This document shows, piece after piece, positions 35,441 to 45,472 of a stretch of 45,472 nt of DNA. The position numbers and the translations under genes were made by a program. Position 1 is the stretch's first letter; each line of letters begins with the position of its first letter. Source of the DNA: Candidatus Fermentibacteraceae bacterium (GTDB lineage Bacteria > Fermentibacterota > Fermentibacteria > Fermentibacterales > JCC-6); assembly GCA_021162285.1 (NCBI GenBank), contig JAGGYZ010000329.1, positions 1-45,472 on the forward strand, given 5' to 3'. The notes beneath the pieces were generated by a model. The model was given only the letters and a program-made list of their open reading frames with translations. It did not search any database and had not been told where the DNA came from.

Positions 35441-37603
35441 TTGAAACGGATCGCTGTTGCCTGTGTCTTTGTAATTCTCTCCTGTGGAAAGGTGTCAGAT
35501 TCTCCTGAATCTGTGAGTGGAGCTGAGCGAAGCTATCTCATGGAAGTCGCCGGAGACTCACTTCTTGTTTCCGGAGAAGGGGATGCAGCCTCGCTGATGT
35601 TCACCTCTGCTGCTCTGCTTCTTCAGCCAGGTTCGGAGAGAAGAGCGGAGCTTGCTGAAAAGGCTTCAGATGCTTCAGTTTCAGGATCAGTTGTTGTTGC
35701 AAGGCTTCTGCTGGAAACGCCTGGTGGAACCACACCATTCAGGGCGCTGAGAACCGGTGGTTCCCGGATTGCTCCCGACATAATGTCCGGACTGACCGCT
35801 GGCAGGTTTGTTCTTCCGGACTATGTCGCCCTTGTGGCTGCTGAGTCTCTTGTTGTAACAGACCCTGCTTATGCACTGGAGTTTCTTCAGATGATCCGTT
35901 CTGAGTTTCCGGGAACAGCAGAAAAAGACAGGCTTCTTGCAACCTACAGGGCTGCCCTGGGATCAGGAGATATTGATTTACAGCAGCAGTGCTGGAACAC
36001 GGCTTTTGACCGTGACGATGATATATTGAGATCAAAGTTCTACCATTTTCGGGGTATGGCCCGGGGTGTATACGGATTCAACGACTTTGTCGATTCATTC
36101 AACCTGTGGCCTGCAGGAGATATCCATGCAGCAGCATACCAACTGTTGCGGGACACCCTTCTTGCAGATTCTTCGCTTGCAAACATGGTTGCAGACCCCT
36201 TTTACAGTGGTGGTCTGTGGAATGAGGTTTACGATCTGTCGGTAAACTCAGCCTTCCCGCCGGCGCACATTGTGTATCTGGGAGGGAGAACCAGAGACAG
36301 GCTTGGAAGACACGACCTGGCAGTCGAGGTTTTGAGCGGCTATCTGGATAAGTGGCCCCGGGGCAGCGATGCTCCAAATGCATGTATCTACCTGGCCCGC
36401 GACATGGCTGCTCTTGGACTGGTGGATCAGGCAATGCAGAAGCTGGATTACTATGAAAACACATGGCCGGATCACAGCAGAATAAGTAATCTGCCCTGGT
36501 ACAGGGGAAGTCTTCTCGCAGAGAACGGTTTCTGGGAGAGGTCAATACCTTTCTTCGCAGAAACTGTAAGCAGGTATCCGGCAAACACAACTGTGGATGA
36601 TGCTCAGTTTTATGGATGTCTTGCCCTCATGAAAACAGGAAGAACTGCAGAAGCGGTTGAGGCATTCGGTAATTTCAACAGCAGATGGACACAGAGTGTC
36701 TACCGCCCGTCATCAAGATACTGGTATGGAGTACTGAAGATGCAGTCCGGTGATGAATCCGGAAGAGGAGTACTGGAAAGACTGATCAGTGACAAACCAT
36801 TCAGTCTTCCAGCTCGTTTTGCAAGACAGTATCTAGGTGTTCCGGGGTGGCGTCCTTTCTACACAGATGAGCAGCTGGAAGTCTGGATGGCCAGGAATGG
36901 AAAACCATCAGCAGTACCACCGCAGAGTGCCGTGGACGGGGTAATTCTGCTTCAGGCCGGGTGCAGAAAGTGGGCTCTGGATCTTTTCAGCCTTGCAGAG
37001 CAGGAGGTGGGCAGTGTATACGGGCTGGCTGCCTTTTATCTGGAAAACAATGTCTGGGAGAGAGGACCGTCGGCAGCCTGGCAGATATGGAGCCTTGAAG
37101 GCGACAATCGACCACTTGACCTCTGGAGACTTCGTTACCCTGCGGCATGGACAGACGATGTTACAGATGCAACAGCTCAATTTAATATGGATCCAAAACT
37201 GCTGTGGTCTATTATGAAACAGGAGAGTGCTTTTCAACCGGAGTGTTTTTCTTCTGCTGGTGCCAGAGGGCTGATTCAGATGATACCCAGTACTTCCGAG
37301 TATGTTGCCATTGAACACGGATGGCAGGATTCCTATACCCCGGATATCCTGTACGATCCGGCAACATCAATTCTTTACGGTACCGCGTGTATAAGCGGGT
37401 ATGGCGAAGACTTCAGCTGGGACATACCTGGAACCCTTGCAGGTTACAACGGTGGACCGCACAATGCGCTCAGGTGGGGATGGGGAACCGTTTCAACTGA
37501 AGAGTTTTTCAGCCGCATCACCTACAACGAAACGAAGAAGTATGTGGAAATAGTCAGTCACAACTACGACATCTACAAAGAAATCTGGCCTGAATTCAAC
37601 TGA
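35441..37603 (+). CDS. Soluble lytic murein transglycosylase (Slt70-like: superhelical N-terminal domain + C-terminal SLT domain), predicted lipoprotein
   Basis: The TTG start immediately follows the previous stop, with AGGAGGA 10 nt upstream. Signal: LKRIAVACVFVILSCG. Catalytic block: LLWSIMKQESAFQPECFSSAGARGLIQMIPST and LAGYNGGPHNA. Confidence 0.85.
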   Translation: MKRIAVACVFVILSCGKVSDSPESVSGAERSYLMEVAGDSLLVSGEGDAASLMFTSAALLLQPGSERRAELAEKASDASVSGSVVVARLLLETPGGTTPFRALRTGGSRIAPDIMSGLTAGRFVLPDYVALVAAESLVVTDPAYALEFLQMIRSEFPGTAEKDRLLATYRAALGSGDIDLQQQCWNTAFDRDDDILRSKFYHFRGMARGVYGFNDFVDSFNLWPAGDIHAAAYQLLRDTLLADSSLANMVADPFYSGGLWNEVYDLSVNSAFPPAHIVYLGGRTRDRLGRHDLAVEVLSGYLDKWPRGSDAPNACIYLARDMAALGLVDQAMQKLDYYENTWPDHSRISNLPWYRGSLLAENGFWERSIPFFAETVSRYPANTTVDDAQFYGCLALMKTGRTAEAVEAFGNFNSRWTQSVYRPSSRYWYGVLKMQSGDESGRGVLERLISDKPFSLPARFARQYLGVPGWRPFYTDEQLEVWMARNGKPSAVPPQSAVDGVILLQAGCRKWALDLFSLAEQEVGSVYGLAAFYLENNVWERGPSAAWQIWSLEGDNRPLDLWRLRYPAAWTDDVTDATAQFNMDPKLLWSIMKQESAFQPECFSSAGARGLIQMIPSTSEYVAIEHGWQDSYTPDILYDPATSILYGTACISGYGEDFSWDIPGTLAGYNGGPHNALRWGWGTVSTEEFFSRITYNETKKYVEIVSHNYDIYKEIWPEFN

Positions 37604-37772
37604 CTGCACACTTATTCGTAGCATACAGCATATCGTTAACTGTTTCTAACATGTTTAGACTGAATAAGATACAGCGAATTTGGTGTTTCAATTCGCGGAA
37701 TTGTATAATCGGGGCAGTACCAGTCTGAAAGGCTGGACGGCACATCTGTTTCATACACAGAAGGGAAACACA

Positions 37773-39017
37773 ATGTCTCGCAGAATATACAGTGATATTA
37801 CAGACCTTATCGAAAAAAGAAGAGCAGAGGGTTTGATAAAAGAGGAGAGAGTTATCACCTCTCCACAGGGCACAGAGATAGAAGTCGGTTCCAGAAAGAA
37901 TGTACTTAATTTCTGTGCAAACAATTACCTGGGGCTGTCAAATCACCCTGCCGTGCGTCAGGCGGCAAAAGACACTATGGACAGCAGAGGCTACGGGCTT
38001 TCCAGTGTGAGATTCATCTGTGGCACACAGGACATTCACAGGGAGCTTGAGACAAAGGTATCTGAATTCCTTGGCACCGATGACACAATTCTCTACGCTG
38101 CCTGCTACGATGCCAATGCCGGTATCTTTGAACCATTTCTTGATTCAGACAGTGCAATAATAGCGGATCAGCTGAACCATGCTTCGATAATTTCAGGGGT
38201 AAGGTTGTGCAAAGCAAAGAGGTACATCTACAGTCACAATCAGACAGGTACTGGTTCCTACAGTTTTGACGGTAAAGATCTTCCCGGTCTTGAGGCGATA
38301 CTGTCAAGTGAAGAAGTGCAGAACTGCAGGTATCGCATGGTATCAACCGATGGTGTTTTCAGCATGAACGGTGACATTGCTCCACTGGATAGAATTGTAA
38401 AGCTATGCAACAAATACGATGCTCTGCTGATGGTTGATGACAGTCATGCCACCGGGTACATCGGAGCAACCGGCAGAGGTACCCATGAGCACTACGGCGT
38501 TATGGGCAGTGTAGACCTGATCACAACAACCTTCGGAAAAGCACTTGGAGGCGCAAGTGGGGGCTGTACTTCCGGCAGGAAGGAACTGATCGACTGGCTC
38601 CGACAGATGTCACGCCCCTACCTTTTTTCCAACACTGTTGCACCGGCAGTGGTAGGTGCAACAATAAAGGCAATTGACATGCTCACACAAAGCACTGCCC
38701 TGCGCGACAAAGTTCATGAGAATGCCAACTATTTCAGAGATGGAATCAGAAAAGCAGGGTTTTCCATCATCGACGGTGAAACTGCAATTGTTCCAATTAT
38801 GTTCGGAGGTTATGAAAACGACGCAGTGCTTGTGCAGAAGTTTGCGAACGATCTTCTGGAGCACGGTGTCTATGCAATTGGCTTCTTCTTTCCTGTTGTG
38901 GCGCTGGGACAGTCAAGAATCAGAGTGCAGCTCAGCGCGGCGCACACTCGGGAACAGCTTGACAGAGCAATACAGGCTTTTGTAGCTGTGGGAAGAGAAA
39001 ACGGAATCGTAAACTGA
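37773..39017 (+). CDS. kbl: Glycine C-acetyltransferase (2-amino-3-ketobutyrate CoA ligase)
   Basis: ATG at 37773 with AAGGGA upstream; the listed upstream extension has no homology signal. Motifs: NFCANNYLGLSNHP, DQLNHASII, MVDDSHATG, and the PLP-lysine block TTFGKALGGASGG. Confidence 0.88.
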   Translation: MSRRIYSDITDLIEKRRAEGLIKEERVITSPQGTEIEVGSRKNVLNFCANNYLGLSNHPAVRQAAKDTMDSRGYGLSSVRFICGTQDIHRELETKVSEFLGTDDTILYAACYDANAGIFEPFLDSDSAIIADQLNHASIISGVRLCKAKRYIYSHNQTGTGSYSFDGKDLPGLEAILSSEEVQNCRYRMVSTDGVFSMNGDIAPLDRIVKLCNKYDALLMVDDSHATGYIGATGRGTHEHYGVMGSVDLITTTFGKALGGASGGCTSGRKELIDWLRQMSRPYLFSNTVAPAVVGATIKAIDMLTQSTALRDKVHENANYFRDGIRKAGFSIIDGETAIVPIMFGGYENDAVLVQKFANDLLEHGVYAIGFFFPVVALGQSRIRVQLSAAHTREQLDRAIQAFVAVGRENGIVN

Positions 39018-39050
39018 TATCCAGGGAGTATTGACATACCCAGCAATAGT

Positions 39051-39704
39051 ATGAATATACCCAATATGAGTAACAACCCGAACGAATTGATTGGCGAGAG
39101 CCTTTTTGGAAAGGTTCGCAGGAAGGTTCTTTCCACATTTGTGCTCAATCCAGAGCGTACATTCTATCTGCTTGAACTGATCAGATTTCTTAACTCCGGC
39201 AGGGGAGCAGTTCAAAGAGAAGTTACCCGGCTTTCAGGCGCTGGGATCATTACGCGAACGAAGGTGGGTAACCAGGTACACTACAGAGCGAACACAAACA
39301 ATCTTATCTACAGAGAACTCAGGTCAATATTTTCGAAAACGACAGGTTTGATTGATCTTCTCAGAGCAGACCTTGAAAGCTGTACTGATGAACTGGGGAT
39401 GGCTTTCATATACGGTGACTATGCCGCTGGAACAGCAGGCGAGAATTCACCGGTCAAGCTGATGGTTGTTGGCGATACTGCAATGGATGCTGTTCGTGCA
39501 TGTACTGTAGAGTTTTCAAGGGAGGCGGCGAGAGAACTTCATGTTACTGTTCTGACTGCTGCTGAGCTGAAGAGGAGACTGGCATCCCACGACCGACGGA
39601 TTAATGAGATTCTTGCGGACAACAAGATATTTCTTGCAGGAGGTGGAAGGGAGCTTCAGGTTCTATCAACTACCGGGGATGACCTTTTCGATGGAATCTT
39701 TTAG
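39051..39704 (+). CDS. Winged-helix (ArsR/MarR-like) DNA-binding domain fused to a degenerate minimal nucleotidyltransferase (MNT-like) domain
   Basis: wHTH: LFGKVRRKVLSTFVLNPERTFYLLELIRFLNSGRGAVQREVTRLSGAGIITRTKVGNQVHYRAN. The NTase-like block reads FIYGDYAAGTAGENSPVKLMVVGD where the canonical family has FGSxARG..SDxDLxVV. An alternative start is ATG 39066. Confidence 0.75.
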   Translation: MNIPNMSNNPNELIGESLFGKVRRKVLSTFVLNPERTFYLLELIRFLNSGRGAVQREVTRLSGAGIITRTKVGNQVHYRANTNNLIYRELRSIFSKTTGLIDLLRADLESCTDELGMAFIYGDYAAGTAGENSPVKLMVVGDTAMDAVRACTVEFSREAARELHVTVLTAAELKRRLASHDRRINEILADNKIFLAGGGRELQVLSTTGDDLFDGIF

Positions 39705-39745
39705 ATTGTCTGTGAAGTGCAGCTGCAAATAAAGACATAAGGCGG

Positions 39746-40978
39746 ATGAAAATGACTGATAAAGTTACCCGGTTTCAGGAAGATGTTACAAGAACCATCC
39801 TGGGGTTAAGAAAATCCATAGGCATTGTTGTTAGCAAACTGCCTGACAGGATAGACAGTCCCCACGATGTGTATCAGGTACTGGGTCTCGACAAGAAACT
39901 TGGCTGGAGAATCTACAAGATAATACACGAAGACGATCTTTTTTTTGCAGCACAGTTCGTGCCTGGTAAGCATTCTTTTGGTCGCTTTATAAGAAGCTGC
40001 AAGGCAAAAGGCGTGGAAAAAAGCTACCTGGATGCGGCGTTGGAAGCAGTAGAGGAATTCTACGAGATAATAGAGATTCATTCCGGGGACAGACAGTCTA
40101 TGGATATGATGCTCATGGCCAGTTCGCGTGATGGCAGAGATCAGGCCTACAACACTCTTAGAAAACAGGCGTACTACGCACAGAGTCATCTGCTGGGTCT
40201 TCAGGCAGAAACGCAGCTTGATGCCTGGATTTTCGGACCGTCTGTTGAAGAGGGAATGCTTGACGTGGCTGAAGTCAAAGGTCTTTTTGATGTAAGAAGG
40301 AACAGACCCGGGGTGAAATGGGTTATAGATACACCTTGTTTTTATGCTGGAAACGAGCATGAAGAACATGTATTTACAAATTCAATTGACCCGGGAGCAA
40401 CATGCAGCCTGATGGACAAGGTTCCTTTTCTGGAAAGCTACTGCAGTACCCCTCTGCCTTCACTGAAAACAGTTACTTCCCACAGCTGTGGTCCGGTTTA
40501 CGAGCTTGAAGACGGACCACTGGGAAATACGAACCTTATAGATACAGTTACAGGAACCGTTTCAAGGGGTATTTTTCCCATAAAACCCGAAGAGGGTGAA
40601 GAGCACCACGAAGTGTCTGTAAAGATATATACTCCTGTTCAGAACCTGGTTCTGGATCTGTTTTTCCACGAAACCATGGCGGAAACCATGTCCGGTAATC
40701 CTCAGGCTAAAATGCTGTTCGATTACTACACCCACGGAGGTGCACTTGCTTACCGTTCAGACAGAGACAGGATTCCCATGGATGTGAAACCCATGATGAT
40801 AGGTACAGGTACAAGCTGTGCCTACACACCTCTGATTCCGAAGTACTCCGACATGCTCGCGGAAGTGTTCCAGTGTCTCAGGTGGGATCCGGACGAGTTT
40901 GTGGTGTACAGAACACGGGTGGAGTTCCCCATTGTTCCCTCATCACTTTACTACTCTGATGCAATGGTGAGAAGCTAG
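39746..40978 (+). CDS. Hypothetical protein (410 aa) with no recognisable domain; downstream partner of the wHTH-NTase gene
   Basis: This is the longest ORF at the locus, 41 nt downstream of the regulator gene, with AAGG upstream. Its composition looks ordinary and protein-like. The 187-aa antisense ORF is F/L/S/K-rich and looks like a shadow. Confidence 0.7.
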   Translation: MKMTDKVTRFQEDVTRTILGLRKSIGIVVSKLPDRIDSPHDVYQVLGLDKKLGWRIYKIIHEDDLFFAAQFVPGKHSFGRFIRSCKAKGVEKSYLDAALEAVEEFYEIIEIHSGDRQSMDMMLMASSRDGRDQAYNTLRKQAYYAQSHLLGLQAETQLDAWIFGPSVEEGMLDVAEVKGLFDVRRNRPGVKWVIDTPCFYAGNEHEEHVFTNSIDPGATCSLMDKVPFLESYCSTPLPSLKTVTSHSCGPVYELEDGPLGNTNLIDTVTGTVSRGIFPIKPEEGEEHHEVSVKIYTPVQNLVLDLFFHETMAETMSGNPQAKMLFDYYTHGGALAYRSDRDRIPMDVKPMMIGTGTSCAYTPLIPKYSDMLAEVFQCLRWDPDEFVVYRTRVEFPIVPSSLYYSDAMVRS

Positions 40979-42273
40979 TCCTCATCTTCCATCATTGCTC
41001 TGCGACTTGTTTTAAGAGCGCAGAGATGTCCGCACATTGAACAGACATCTTCGTCTTCCGGAAGTACCTCGTCACGAAAGTTTCTTGCTGTTACAGGATC
41101 CATGGCGATTTCAAACTGCTGTTTCCAGTCAAATGCCGCTCTTGCTTCGGCCATGGCATTGTCCGGATTCATAGCTCCTGGAATTCCCCTTGCAATATCC
41201 GCTGCATGCGCAGCAATCCTGGCAGATATGACTCCCACTCTAACATCATCTATGTCTGGCAGTCTCAGGTGTTCAGCCGGGGTTACATAGCACAGGAAGT
41301 CCGCTCCGTTCCACGCGGCTATTGCTCCTCCGATAGCACTGGTGATGTGATCGTAACCTGGTGCAATATCAGTTACTATAGGGCCGAGAACATAGAACGG
41401 AGCTCCACCGCACAGACTTTTTTGAATTCTGATATTTTCTGCGATCTGATCCATCGGAACATGGCCTGGACCCTCTATCATCGTCTGCACATCCGCTGCC
41501 AGAGCCTTCTTCTGCAGCTCTCCAAGGGAAACAAGTTCTTCTATCTGGCCTCTGTCTCCAGCATCGGCGATGCAGCCCGGGCGGAGACCATCACCGAGAG
41601 AAAATGTAACATCGTATTCTCTGAGGATTTCAGTCAGCCTGTTGAAACCGGAGTACAGAGGGTTCTCCTCTCCCCGTTTTTCCATCCACTCTGCCATGAG
41701 AGAGCCTCCACGGGAAACTATCCCCATTTTACGCCCCTGTTCACGCAGAAGTGCCACTGACCGTCTTGTAACCCCGCAGTGCAGTGTAAGGTAGTCTACT
41801 CCGGCTCTGCAGTGATCTTCCACGGCGGAGAAAATTTCTTCAGCCGATACATCTGCCACATCACGGTTATCATCCATTGCAACTCCGAAGACCTGGTAAA
41901 CAGGTACAGTTCCGAGAGGAACCGGGCTGGCTGCGGTAATACCTTTAAGAATAGTCTTCCAGCCTGTACCTGTGGAGAGGTCCATAACCGTGTGCGCTCC
42001 GGAGGAAACAGCCATTTTCAGCTTTTCCAGTTCCTCTTTAACCGACTCGTGGTCCATTGAGCTGCCGATGTTTGCGTTTATCTTTATCCTGCTTCCACCG
42101 CCTATTATGCAGGGCGATGATATTCTTCTTGTGTTGTTGGACGGAACAACGGCGTGACCGGCAGCAATTTCCCTGAGAGCATCTTCAACACAGAGGCTTT
42201 CATCCTTGATCGCAAGGAGTACAACGCTGTCTGCTTTTCCCATGCGTGCCTGTTCGATAATTGTATTTGACAT
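40975..42273 (-). CDS. thiC: ThiC-family radical-SAM enzyme, short form (phosphomethylpyrimidine synthase; a BzaF-type paralogue cannot be excluded)
   Basis: Motifs: PVYQ, DYLTLHCGV, GIVSRGGS, LSLGDGLRPGCIADA, MIEGPGHVP, GPIVTDIAPGYDHITSAIG, and the C-terminal cluster motif CSMCGHLC. Confidence 0.85.
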   Translation of the reverse strand: MSNTIIEQARMGKADSVVLLAIKDESLCVEDALREIAAGHAVVPSNNTRRISSPCIIGGGSRIKINANIGSSMDHESVKEELEKLKMAVSSGAHTVMDLSTGTGWKTILKGITAASPVPLGTVPVYQVFGVAMDDNRDVADVSAEEIFSAVEDHCRAGVDYLTLHCGVTRRSVALLREQGRKMGIVSRGGSLMAEWMEKRGEENPLYSGFNRLTEILREYDVTFSLGDGLRPGCIADAGDRGQIEELVSLGELQKKALAADVQTMIEGPGHVPMDQIAENIRIQKSLCGGAPFYVLGPIVTDIAPGYDHITSAIGGAIAAWNGADFLCYVTPAEHLRLPDIDDVRVGVISARIAAHAADIARGIPGAMNPDNAMAEARAAFDWKQQFEIAMDPVTARNFRDEVLPEDEDVCSMCGHLCALKTSRRAMMEDED

Positions 42274-42365
42274 GTCGTCCTTTCCAGTTCTAATTTTCCG
42301 GCGATTTCACCGAACATGAATTATAGTTTACTTCTCAGTGAACCGCATTCAATCTGGAGGAAACC

Positions 42366-43688
42366 ATGATCTGTGCCGTCATTTCTGCTCTGTTGTCTAT
42401 TGTTCCGTCTTCCGGGGAGGCTCTTGAAGCCATGCTGGAAGAACATCCGTTCCCTGCTGCCCAGGAAGCTGTGCTTATAGAGTACGGTGACCGGTTTCTT
42501 GTGCCTGAAAGCCCTTCTCTTGTGAAAGCAGCTGTTCTGCGGCAGTTTCACCGGATGGCATTTCAGCTTCAGCCCGAGCCTGTCAGCAGTCTTGCAGATT
42601 ACATAACAGAGAACTGGAGTTCCCTGGATACAGAAACAAAGAATCTCTGGAGAGAGTTTGCTGGAAGAACCGGGCTCATGGTACCGGCAGAAGCTGTCTC
42701 AGGTGAAAACCTCACTTCCATTCTTCGTTACTGTTCGGAAACCGGCAGTACAGTTCCTGAAGTGAACACAGGGAATCTCACAGATCTGCAGCGCTTTTAC
42801 TACACACTGGCTCTTCCACCGGACCAGTCTCTTCAATTCATTGAAGACCCCGGCTGGGCTGTAAGAAATGCAGTGCTTCAGAATAATCCCGGCGCTGCTT
42901 TTGAGATGCTTGATGACCCTTCACCTTACGTAAGAATGAATGCGGCACTTGCAGCCGGCCGCGATGACCTGCTTCTTGAAATGGCATCTGCAGACGGCCC
43001 TCTGGGACATATGTCTCTGGCTGGCGTAGGGCAGGTTCCAATACTGGAAGATTCCCTTTTCAACAGCGATGATCCTGCAAAACGGGTTTCAGCCCTGTTA
43101 ACTCTTCTCGATCTGGGATGGACTGTTCCCCAGACGAAAGTTGATTATCTGCTCACAGATGACTATGTAATGGTAAGAGCAATAGTCGCAGATGCCACAG
43201 GTAGAAACTTCGCAATGCCGGAAGAGGGAGATCTTCCAGAGGAAGCACCTGCTCTGCTGGATGTACCAGACCGCCTTGTGCTGGTTACCGACGCAGGAGA
43301 TTTTACAATGACCCTGCTGAAGGAAGCTGCCCCTGTAACCTGCAGAAGTTTCTGGTACCTTGCCGAAACAGGTTTTTACAACGGAATCTATTTCCACCGG
43401 GTTATTCCGGGATTTGTTGCCCAGGCAGGCTGTCCGGAAGGCAATGGATACGGCGGGCCTGGCTATACAATACCGGCGGAAAACAACACCGTTCCCTACC
43501 GGAGAGGCATTGTTGGCATGGCGGACTCCGGTCTTGATACAGGAGGAAGCCAGTTCTTTATAATGCTTGACAGTCAGAGACGACTGGACTGCCGTTACAC
43601 GGTTTTTGCCTCTGTAGACAACACAGACAATCTGGATAACATTGAGGTTGGAACAAGGATACTTGAAATTCATATGATAAATCCTTAG
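42366..43688 (+). CDS. HEAT-like repeat domain fused to a cyclophilin-type peptidyl-prolyl cis-trans isomerase
   Basis: C-terminal 150 aa: FWYLAETGFYNGIYFHRVIPGFVAQAGCP..GGPGYTIPAE..RGIVGMADSGLDTGGSQFFIML. N-terminal ~290 aa carries HEAT-like units (DPGWAVRNAVL, DPSPYVRMNAALA, DDPAKRVSAL, DDYVMVRAIVA). Confidence 0.85.
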   Translation: MICAVISALLSIVPSSGEALEAMLEEHPFPAAQEAVLIEYGDRFLVPESPSLVKAAVLRQFHRMAFQLQPEPVSSLADYITENWSSLDTETKNLWREFAGRTGLMVPAEAVSGENLTSILRYCSETGSTVPEVNTGNLTDLQRFYYTLALPPDQSLQFIEDPGWAVRNAVLQNNPGAAFEMLDDPSPYVRMNAALAAGRDDLLLEMASADGPLGHMSLAGVGQVPILEDSLFNSDDPAKRVSALLTLLDLGWTVPQTKVDYLLTDDYVMVRAIVADATGRNFAMPEEGDLPEEAPALLDVPDRLVLVTDAGDFTMTLLKEAAPVTCRSFWYLAETGFYNGIYFHRVIPGFVAQAGCPEGNGYGGPGYTIPAENNTVPYRRGIVGMADSGLDTGGSQFFIMLDSQRRLDCRYTVFASVDNTDNLDNIEVGTRILEIHMINP

Positions 43689-43734
43689 GATTGCCGGAGC
43701 AAAACAATATTAACCATTCAGCGGAGAGCATTAC

Positions 43735-44685
43735 ATGACGCACAAAAAAGTACTTGTGACCGGTGCCATGGGGCAGATTGGCAGTGAGCTGACCGGTGTG
43801 TTGAGAAGGAAGTATGGCCGGGAGAATGTAGTTGCAACGGACATTCGTAAACCTGAAGGGGTTCTTGCGGGATCAGGCCCCTGTGATGTGCTTGATGTTA
43901 CAGATAAAACCGCAGTTTTTACCATGCTGCAAAAGTACGGAATAAACACGGTTTACCACATGGCAGCCATTCTAAGTGCAACCGGAGAGAAACACCCTGC
44001 TTTGTGCTGGAATGTAAACATGAATGGCTCAATAAACATCATGGATGCCGCAGTAGAGCTTGGTCTGGAAACGGTTATAATTCCCAGCTCCATAGCAGCT
44101 TTCGGGCCGGAAACACCCAGATTCAACACACCCCAGGAGACGATTTTGCGCCCGAGAACGATGTATGGTGTAACGAAAGTGTGTGGCGAACTGCTTGGAG
44201 ACTACTACGTGAAAAGATTCGGTGTGGATATCCGTGGTGTGCGCTATCCGGGAATCATCAGTTCTGAAACTCTTCCCGGAGGCGGCACAACAGACTATGC
44301 CGTGGACATATTCTACAAAGCAGTGGAAGAAGGTACTTACACCTGTTTTGTTAAAGAGGATACAAAACTGCCAATGATGTACATGCCTGATTGTATCAAA
44401 GCCACAATTGATCTGGCGGAAGCGGATAAAGAGTCTCTGGTTCACAGCTGCGAATACAACCTGGCTGCACTTTCATTTACCGCCGGCGAGCTTGCTGCGG
44501 AGATAAGAAAGCATGTGCCCGGATTTGAGGTCACCTATGAGCCGGATTTCCGCCAGGCCATCGCGGATACATGGCCAGCGACAATCGATGATTCGGCTGC
44601 CAGAAACGAATGGGGCTGGCAACCGGATTGGAACCTTGAAAACATGACAATGGATATGCTTGAGAAGCTGAGAGCTAAAATCTGA
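43735..44685 (+). CDS. tdh: L-threonine 3-dehydrogenase, SDR / NAD-dependent epimerase-like type
   Basis: Motifs: KVLVTGAMGQIGSEL..ATDIRKP, the catalytic YGVTK block, and RGVRYPGIIS. The length (316 aa) and the kbl gene nearby fit the SDR-type TDH family. Confidence 0.8.
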   Translation: MTHKKVLVTGAMGQIGSELTGVLRRKYGRENVVATDIRKPEGVLAGSGPCDVLDVTDKTAVFTMLQKYGINTVYHMAAILSATGEKHPALCWNVNMNGSINIMDAAVELGLETVIIPSSIAAFGPETPRFNTPQETILRPRTMYGVTKVCGELLGDYYVKRFGVDIRGVRYPGIISSETLPGGGTTDYAVDIFYKAVEEGTYTCFVKEDTKLPMMYMPDCIKATIDLAEADKESLVHSCEYNLAALSFTAGELAAEIRKHVPGFEVTYEPDFRQAIADTWPATIDDSAARNEWGWQPDWNLENMTMDMLEKLRAKI

Positions 44686-44770
44686 TTCCTGTGCTGTCCC
44701 CAGGCTACCTGCAGGACTTTGTATCGGTTATTGTGCTACCTGGGGTTTAACTGCGCTACAGGAGATACAA

Positions 44771-45472
44771 TTGAATACACATGTTCAGCAGCAACTGTTC
44801 TTCGGCAGAGAGAAAGAGCTGTCGGAGCTGTCCCGGAAACTCATGGAGCCGGGATGCACCGTTTTAACCATTACCGGAATAGGCGGAGTTGGTAAAACAT
44901 CCACAGCTATGAAACTTGCTGAAGATCTGCAGTTCCGCTTTGATGATGGAGTGTATTTTGTTCCCCTTTCCGGTCTGGAGCACTCCGGGCAGGTTGCACC
45001 GGCAATAGCGTCAAAACTGGGTCTGAGAATATCCGGCGGAAGTTTTGCCAGACAGCTTAAGGATATCCTGAAACAAAAGAACCTGCTTCTGGTACTCGAT
45101 AACTTCGAGCATCTGATCAGTGCATCGTCACTTGTTGAAGAAATAGGGCTTGCCTCGGAACAGGTAAAGATGCTTGTTACTTCCAGAACAAGACTGAACA
45201 TTGCCGGCGAATTTGTCTATGAGCTGTCAGGCATGACTATCCCGGAAGAGGATACTCATGAGATTCTTCTATCTTCACCGCCGGTGAGGCTGTTTCTGTC
45301 CAATCCGGATGTTGACGGGAAACTTGACCTTGACGACATGAAAACTGTTGTTCAGATATGCAGGTCGGTTAACGGTGTACCGCTGGGGATCGTTCTGGCA
45401 TCATCCTGGCTTATCGAAATGACACCTCTGGAAATACTGCGCCGGATTTCCGAAACAGAAGATCTTCTTAAC
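44771..45472 (+). CDS. NB-ARC / STAND-class P-loop NTPase, 3' end runs off the window (absent from the supplied ORF track)
   Basis: My own translation of frame 2 is open to the window end, from a TTG start at 44771 with GGAGA 6 nt upstream. Motifs: FFGREKELSEL, P-loop TITGIGGVGKTS, Walker B LLLVLDNFEH, MLVTSR, and a GxP-type motif NGVPLGI. Confidence 0.8.
   Translation, partial: MNTHVQQQLFFGREKELSELSRKLMEPGCTVLTITGIGGVGKTSTAMKLAEDLQFRFDDGVYFVPLSGLEHSGQVAPAIASKLGLRISGGSFARQLKDILKQKNLLLVLDNFEHLISASSLVEEIGLASEQVKMLVTSRTRLNIAGEFVYELSGMTIPEEDTHEILLSSPPVRLFLSNPDVDGKLDLDDMKTVVQICRSVNGVPLGIVLASSWLIEMTPLEILRRISETEDLLN

Follow-up and report, generated by a model that had tools for sequence, protein, structure and literature searches.

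A degenerate winged helix–nucleotidyltransferase gene and its downstream neighbour in Fermentibacteria: a probable lineage-specific adjacency rather than a conserved module of toxin or defence type

Two neighbouring genes in a 45,472-nt stretch of Candidatus Fermentibacteraceae DNA (the whole stretch analysed, hereafter the window) represent a lineage-specific adjacency; the toxin or defence module that a preliminary description had tentatively proposed for them is not supported. Both are genuine genes, two same-strand ORFs at 39051–39704 (gene A, 217 aa) and 39746–40978 (gene B, 410 aa) with a gap of 41 nt between them. We think it probable that they have separate origins and do not constitute a conserved system, gene A being a domesticated antitoxin and gene B a stand-alone member of its own protein family.

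The pair is flanked by kbl (37770–39017) on one side and by the convergent thiC (40975–42273) on the other, with a cyclophilin-HEAT gene and then an NAD-epimerase-type tdh beyond thiC; it thus lies between kbl and tdh, as had been described. The stop codon of gene B and the convergent thiC have the bases CTAG in common. Within the spacer between the two genes, a purine-rich AAGGCGGA precedes the ATG of gene B and looks Shine-Dalgarno-like by eye. The spacer is poorly conserved except for this Shine-Dalgarno sequence, and a terminator scan detected no terminator-like site in it. A composition scan across the pair detected no break or anomaly and no signature of horizontal transfer. Features of the locus are collected in Table 1.

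Table 1 Features of the gene A–gene B locus, in window positions.
Feature	Position	Strand	Evidence
Promoter/operator of gene A, conserved, putative	39031..39072	+	Layout common to orthologues and canonical PDC-M05A loci
Gene A (regA), 212 aa from conserved ATG	39066..39704	+	PADLOC PDC-M05A, family profile
Decayed catalytic motif G122-D123-X10-P134-V-K136, replacing GSX10DXD	39414..39458	+	Alignment A3
A–B intergenic spacer, 41 nt	39705..39745	+	Sequence, terminator scan
Gene B N-terminal all-helical domain, residues 1–152	39746..40201	+	AlphaFold2 domain model, conservation
Gene B C-terminal beta-rich domain, residues 153–410	40202..40978	+	Full-length AlphaFold2 model

Gene A combines a winged helix, tentatively ArsR-like, with a degenerate, MntA-like minimal nucleotidyltransferase. 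It matches the PADLOC family PDC-M05A (PDLC04368) over its full length (E 1.2e-53), with residues 14–203 aligned to profile positions 6–196 of 201 (191 positions). The C-terminal half of a gene A family profile (alignment A3) hits the MntA structures 5yep (E 1.5e-5) and 6m6u (E 6.6e-5) and other minimal nucleotidyltransferase structures, and the N-terminal half hits ArsR/SmtB structures (PDB 6uvu and 1r1t, E 1e-3 to 1e-2). The family match and the profile together uphold the earlier view of the first protein as a winged helix-turn-helix joined to a nucleotidyltransferase-like domain. General domain libraries recognize it poorly: NCBIfam matches are at about 1e-3, far below cut-offs (HTH_metalloreg, E 1.6e-3), and Pfam returns only sub-threshold matches, the nucleotidyltransferase model Polbeta among them (E 0.11, not significant). 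Orthologues of gene A are 46–95% identical to it and belong to Fermentibacteria wherever they are named. Invariant positions in alignment A3 fall mostly in the winged helix.

Gene B had been regarded as an orphan, a view that does not survive a phmmer scan of 1.84 billion representatives, which recovered homologues in 1854 clusters at 50% identity (E≤1e-3), 1280 of them reaching E≤1e-10 and 365 reaching E≤1e-30. Family members are ~400–430 aa long, match end to end and come mostly from Phycisphaerae. All are named ‘hypothetical protein’ except for one evident mis-annotation, and a second, alignment-based word search of a large protein database found no further annotation or relatives. Gene B itself has no Pfam or PADLOC match and only a chance-level NCBIfam match (E 0.18), and no Pfam, NCBIfam or PADLOC family recurs among 36 diverse members. 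Invariant residues of the family include G114 and D115 together with W54, P73, H112, G151, R187, G260, R389 and P395, the last eight of which gene B retains in its end-to-end alignment with the Phycisphaerae/Planctomycetota proteins (25–34% identity). R116 is near-invariant, and the N-terminal domain bears the motif H-[AS]-G-D-R.

The AlphaFold2 model of full-length gene B (pLDDT 89.4, pTM 0.83) has eight helices in residues 1–150 followed by a beta-rich domain, and the N-terminal domain modelled alone reaches a pLDDT of 92. Fold and profile searches, which had been proposed as a check, gave nothing convincing. Foldseek with the full-length model found a best PDB TM-score of ≤0.30 and no BFVD match at E≤1e-3, the N-domain model matched no PDB fold, its best hit being at E 0.49, and PDB profile searches yielded chance-level hits (E 0.68) or designed helical-bundle proteins only. 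Gene B and its relatives might represent a new fold with two domains, one common across Phycisphaerae. No transmembrane or hydrophobic segment was detected in gene B, and its pI is 5.3.

Two assignments of the N-terminal domain were tried and rejected. An LGxDxxLAWK pattern raised the possibility of a helix-turn-helix or winged helix. The domain has no such fold match and no profile match to the winged helix of gene A; HTH_20 (0.005) and BTAD (0.003) each appear in one of the 36 members, and designed helical bundles are the only PDB hits. Gene B had also been described as not HEPN-like and as devoid of an Rx4-6H motif. The second part is not literally correct, with two such strings present (R35–H40 and R55–H61), but neither is conserved in the family and the first part therefore stands. 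Comparison of a gene B profile with an M05B protein by hhalign gave a probability of 0.1%, and the N-domain Foldseek search likewise returned no HEPN fold. We do not think that gene B is a toxin. With low confidence, we would suggest a ligand- or nucleic-acid-binding protein with a housekeeping or regulatory role that uses the invariant His/Asp/Arg cluster.

An A-like protein within 5 kb was found in none of 52 non-orthologous B loci (L002, L005, L006 and 49 genome loci, nearly all from Phycisphaerae or other Planctomycetota), a sample biased towards Phycisphaerae because loci outside Fermentibacteria were drawn with one peptide pattern. The 91 immediate neighbours of these B homologues are heterogeneous and mostly housekeeping (glycogen synthase, PolA, aldehyde dehydrogenase, transporters, kinases and beta-propeller proteins among them), with no recurrent defence family. 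Co-occurrence of B homologues with winged helix–nucleotidyltransferase genes, one of the comparisons proposed at the outset, was observed in none of the 52 loci. At these loci B homologues live without the regulator and mostly beside housekeeping genes, the very observation that had been named in advance as refuting the two-gene module. A conserved partner within Planctomycetota was also considered; a cluster of beta-propeller and unknown proteins occupies ~10 of the 91 neighbour slots and is unconvincing because its repeats are heterogeneous. Several genomes carry at least two B copies, some of them in tandem, and searches of plasmid, phage and viral-contig collections found no B. Planctomycete members are multi-copy and found in varied contexts, whereas the Fermentibacteria branch is single-copy and occupies a fixed syntenic site near gene A.

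Within Fermentibacteria, genes A and B adjoin in the window and at loci L064 and L001. At L003 and L004 they are separated by an oppositely oriented GT87 gene, and at L062 and L063 gene A stands in the same synteny without B. L001 and L062 are ~80% identical in both flanks, and what sets them apart is a clean 1.3-kb indel containing nothing but B. At L059–L061 gene A occurs in another context and is followed by a DUF2259 gene, which was examined as a relative of B and rejected (hhalign probability 0.1%). Where Fermentibacteria carry B, it invariably follows A at a distance of ≤1.7 kb and takes the place that a HEPN toxin would have, and this constant place makes a lineage-specific functional tie between the two possible. 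All the adjacencies trace to one Fermentibacteria lineage and therefore count as one evolutionary event. In a quick tree with biased sampling, the Fermentibacteria B sequences, including the distant paralogue P0028 (L005), form one supported clade among Phycisphaerae.

Upstream of gene A, part of the spacer that follows kbl is almost invariant among the window, L064 and L003 despite saturated synonymous sites. The ATG at 39051, which opens the longer ORF, is not conserved (ATT in L064, ACT in L003), and the start is therefore likely to be the ATG at 39066, which is conserved among orthologues. The protein is most likely 212 aa long, beginning MSNNPNE, as judged from these alignments. The TTGACA noted previously is present at 39031–39036 as a -35-like element. 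It is followed by a first palindrome, TACCC-N5-TAGTA, at 39037–39051, a 6-nt spacer, and a second palindrome, TACCC-N5-GAGTA, at 39058–39072, which overlaps the start codon at 39066–39068. By anchoring the gene A upstream regions from all loci we derived a common layout, TTGAC[AT] - (0 or 4 nt) - TACCC-N5-[TA][AG]GTA - N6 - TACC[CT]-N5-GAGTA. It is seen in the window, L064, L003, L001, L062, L059 and L061, irrespective of whether kbl, a divergent M28 peptidase gene or a 160-aa ORF precedes gene A. Paired palindromes of the TACCC-N5-RRGTA type, 21 nt apart, occur at these seven Fermentibacteria loci and at two canonical PDC-M05 loci, L058 and L057, which have a purer TACCC-N5-GGGTA twice, with the same 21-nt spacing, upstream of the PDC-M05A ATG. 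The string TACCCNNNNNRRGTA occurs a single time in the 45-kb window against 0.15 expected.

We read the TACCC-palindrome pair as an ancestral operator of the PDC-M05A family that the orphaned gene A has retained, and from the conserved layout we propose that the gene A protein binds at its own promoter. Gene A may resemble the ArsR/SmtB repressors in its N-terminal domain and in a putative palindromic operator placed over the regulator's own promoter. It differs from them in scoring far below the family cut-offs and in having a C-terminal domain derived from a nucleotidyltransferase. The putative promoter is supported by conservation, not by consensus. A consensus promoter scanner called no sigma-70 promoter upstream of gene A, owing to a weak -10 element; at L059 a TACAAT stands at 17-nt spacing. 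The -35-like hexamer ends 29 nt upstream of 39066, and no Shine-Dalgarno sequence precedes that ATG. A start behind a conserved TTGACA and without a Shine-Dalgarno sequence makes a leaderless mRNA plausible. The earlier leaderless proposal is thereby supported, with the weak -10 element and the missing promoter call counting on the other side.

This arrangement allows a closer relationship between the genes, in which A would be a dedicated transcription factor of B and the product or ligand of B would feed back through the dead nucleotidyltransferase domain. Co-transcription is probable in the window, L064 and L001, where an operator at the A promoter would control B too. We regard such a dedicated regulator–target operon as unlikely, since at L003 and L004 a promoter separate from that of A must serve gene B, which has no TACCC-N14-18-TACC[CT] repeat pair upstream, and since gene A and the same operator persist where B is absent. 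The Fermentibacteria-specific C-terminal tail of A (…DLF…) also occurs where B is absent, so it is not a B-specific adaptation. A looser relationship is possible, with read-through from an autoregulated gene A promoter into B making the two a lineage-specific operon.

The canonical relatives of gene A have a different partner. PDC-M05 consists, by its published description, of a nucleotidyltransferase and a HEPN protein, and antiviral activity of the system is unconfirmed (PMC12988326). At L058 an overlapping 139-aa gene that matches PDC-M05B (E 8.6e-62) lies downstream of an active relative of A, the two being part of a type I restriction-modification operon, and at L057 the relative adjoins hsdR and hsdS. 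On the Sulfuricella plasmid pSCD, an M05B homologue (58% identity to the partner at L058) and an integrase come after a relative with an intact GS...SDVDL motif. A search for M05B- or HEPN-like frames or remnants found none, either in the window or across six related Fermentibacteria loci; for the absence of an M05B neighbour, the L058 139-aa gene is the positive control. Gene A matches M05A in full length, and has in common with L057 and L058 the winged-helix recognition helix GRGAVQRE and a tandem operator laid out like their TACCC-N5-GGGTA pair. It departs from them in having no M05B/HEPN neighbour and a destroyed catalytic motif, and in a second palindrome that overlaps the start codon. 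Its position in the Fermentibacteria loci examined is a conserved chromosomal one, not a defence island (L059–L061 being another context).

A vacant HEPN slot could in principle have been refilled. Partner exchange is known in toxin-antitoxin families, and gene B lies directly downstream of A, co-oriented, behind a 41-nt gap with no terminator, in just the canonical HEPN position. Gene B might then be an effector with a fold absent from the PDB that replaced the HEPN protein behind a dead nucleotidyltransferase antitoxin; gene A would neutralize it by binding or repression, and the dead domain would neutralize or sense B. If true, this would be a previously unseen module derived from a toxin-antitoxin system. 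We consider it very improbable. In 52 of 52 other loci B stands alone among housekeeping neighbours with no defence enrichment, the plasmids, phages and viral contigs in the collections searched lack it, and neither profile nor fold comparisons liken it to HEPN proteins. The locus keeps its synteny and is inherited vertically instead of lying in an island, and the GT87 gene splits the two genes at L003 and L004. Gene B also evolves as slowly as its metabolic neighbours, with pN against L064 of 0.090 for gene B, 0.093 for kbl, 0.098 for thiC and 0.160 for gene A, pS being saturated at ~0.75 for all four.

The decay of the catalytic motif in gene A, described earlier as a change of G-S to G-D and of S-D-x-D-L to S-P-V-K-L, is confirmed by alignment A3. 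Gene A reads Y-G-D...S-P-V-K-L (G122-D123; S133-P-V-K-L) where relatives 33–39% identical to it retain Y-G-S...S-D-[IV]-D-[LV]. Other Fermentibacteria orthologues have S-R-V-N-L, S-P-I-N-L or T-P-I-R-L, and the most divergent, basal-clade orthologues, P0228 and P0237, have S-E-I-E-L with acidic residues retained. The HepT/MntA type VII system (Shewanella SO_3166/SO_3165; 5yep; PMC7641770) offers a direct comparison. Its minimal nucleotidyltransferase core is homologous to that of gene A, and its antitoxin gene likewise lies upstream of, and co-oriented with, a downstream gene. MntA, however, has no winged helix and is an active AMPylase with GSX10DXD, whereas gene A has GD-X10-PVK and no adjoining HEPN protein with RX4HXY. 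Changing GS to AT or DXD to EXE in MntA abolishes AMPylation (PMC7641770). Motif decay and these mutants together give good grounds for a loss of activity, and support the earlier proposal that gene A is a catalytically dead protein with a regulatory or binding role. That gene A is still an enzyme working through a non-canonical active site can hardly be credited: the acidic S-E-I-E-L of P0228 and P0237 and purifying selection on the nucleotidyltransferase-like domain would favour it, but in the window's clade Pro and Lys occupy both metal-binding Asp positions and Asp replaces the GS serine, even the conservative DXD to EXE change abolished MntA activity (PMC7641770), and Pfam nucleotidyltransferase models are without significance (Polbeta, E 0.11).

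We return to separate origins as the preferred explanation. The ancestor of gene A would have been a PDC-M05A/MntA-type winged helix–nucleotidyltransferase that worked alongside a HEPN protein. The gene for the latter was presumably lost and the GSX10DXD motif decayed, with the winged helix and the operator being retained. Gene A may now bind the two TACCC-N5-RRGTA palindromes over its own promoter and start codon and repress its own, probably leaderless, transcript, with the dead nucleotidyltransferase domain serving as a dimerization or ligand-binding scaffold. Gene B would be a soluble cytoplasmic protein from a large family of stand-alone proteins best represented in Phycisphaerae. It was probably acquired by the ancestor of part of the Fermentibacteria, landing downstream of A, and it would function without depending on gene A. 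In the window it is most likely co-transcribed with A, which would place it indirectly under gene A autoregulation.

Neither result alters current understanding of defence or toxin-antitoxin biology. Gene A nonetheless offers a candidate case of antitoxin domestication, in which the HEPN partner and the catalytic residues are lost and the winged helix and ancestral operator are kept; gene A is present with this operator in every Fermentibacteria locus examined. It also provides a testable candidate operator sequence for the whole PDC-M05A family, and a warning against counting a locus as a defence system when its sole match is to the M05A model. The gene B family, at >1800 clusters at 50% identity, invites structural and functional study: it lacks annotation, its structure is predicted with confidence, and none of its relatives has been solved. 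DNA of the locus is present in hydrothermal-vent metagenome runs and in no RNA run, and proteins nearly identical to those of the pair bear the names Candidatus Fermentibacteria or Sabulitectum.

Immediately 5' of the annotated ATG of the intact PDC-M05A gene on the Sulfuricella plasmid pSCD (L065), TTGACA is followed by TGCCC-N5-GGGGC, a palindrome that is related to, yet a variant of, those in other PDC-M05A-type operators. This combination suggests that the promoter-operator design may be family-wide in PDC-M05A with half-site specificity varying, and some PDC-M05A start codons are possibly mis-called.

The C-terminal tail of gene A (…L.V….DDLF.G.F) is clade-specific, being common to the Fermentibacteria orthologues and absent from active PDC-M05A relatives. 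Because it is also found where gene B is missing, the tail is not a B-specific adaptation. In place of gene B, one Fermentibacteria clade has genes for a DUF2259 protein and a PAS-GAF-GGDEF protein behind gene A, and the slot 3' of gene A thus varies among clades.

Coordinates of features in the window and in related loci
Feature	Locus	Positions	Strand	Remark
pSCD promoter-operator	L065	1459-1500
Gene A tail	window	39657-39704
Region after gene A	L059	5739-6551		DUF2259-type clade
Region after gene A	L061	5729-6589		DUF2259-type clade
Gene B/thiC overlap	window	40975-40978		CTAG
Gene B/thiC overlap	L064	7227-7230
B-family duplicate/multi-copy loci	L008	2387-3643 and 4974-6266
B-family duplicate/multi-copy loci	L018/L054; L048
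thiC leader	window	42274-42365	minus	no Rfam match at E<=0.1 (37000-45472 searched)
ORF 3' of tdh	window	44771-45472		cut by window edge
Gene 3' of tdh	L064	11180-13230

Gene B and thiC converge, and their stop codons overlap within a common CTAG. The same 4-nt overlap occurs in L064, a related Fermentibacteria locus; the two genes abut without overlap in L001 and are separated by 4 nt in L003. Neither a TPP riboswitch nor any other Rfam family was found in the searched interval, which includes the thiC leader.

Phycisphaerae MAGs carry the gene B family as tandem or nearby duplicates and in several copies per genome. About 10 of 91 immediate neighbors of B fall into a loose cluster of proteins with beta-propeller or unknown repeats, and these often lie in divergent orientation.

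An ORF truncated by the window edge lies 3' of tdh. At the equivalent position in L064, a gene encodes NB-ARC and TPR domains, which places a STAND NTPase behind tdh in at least that related locus.
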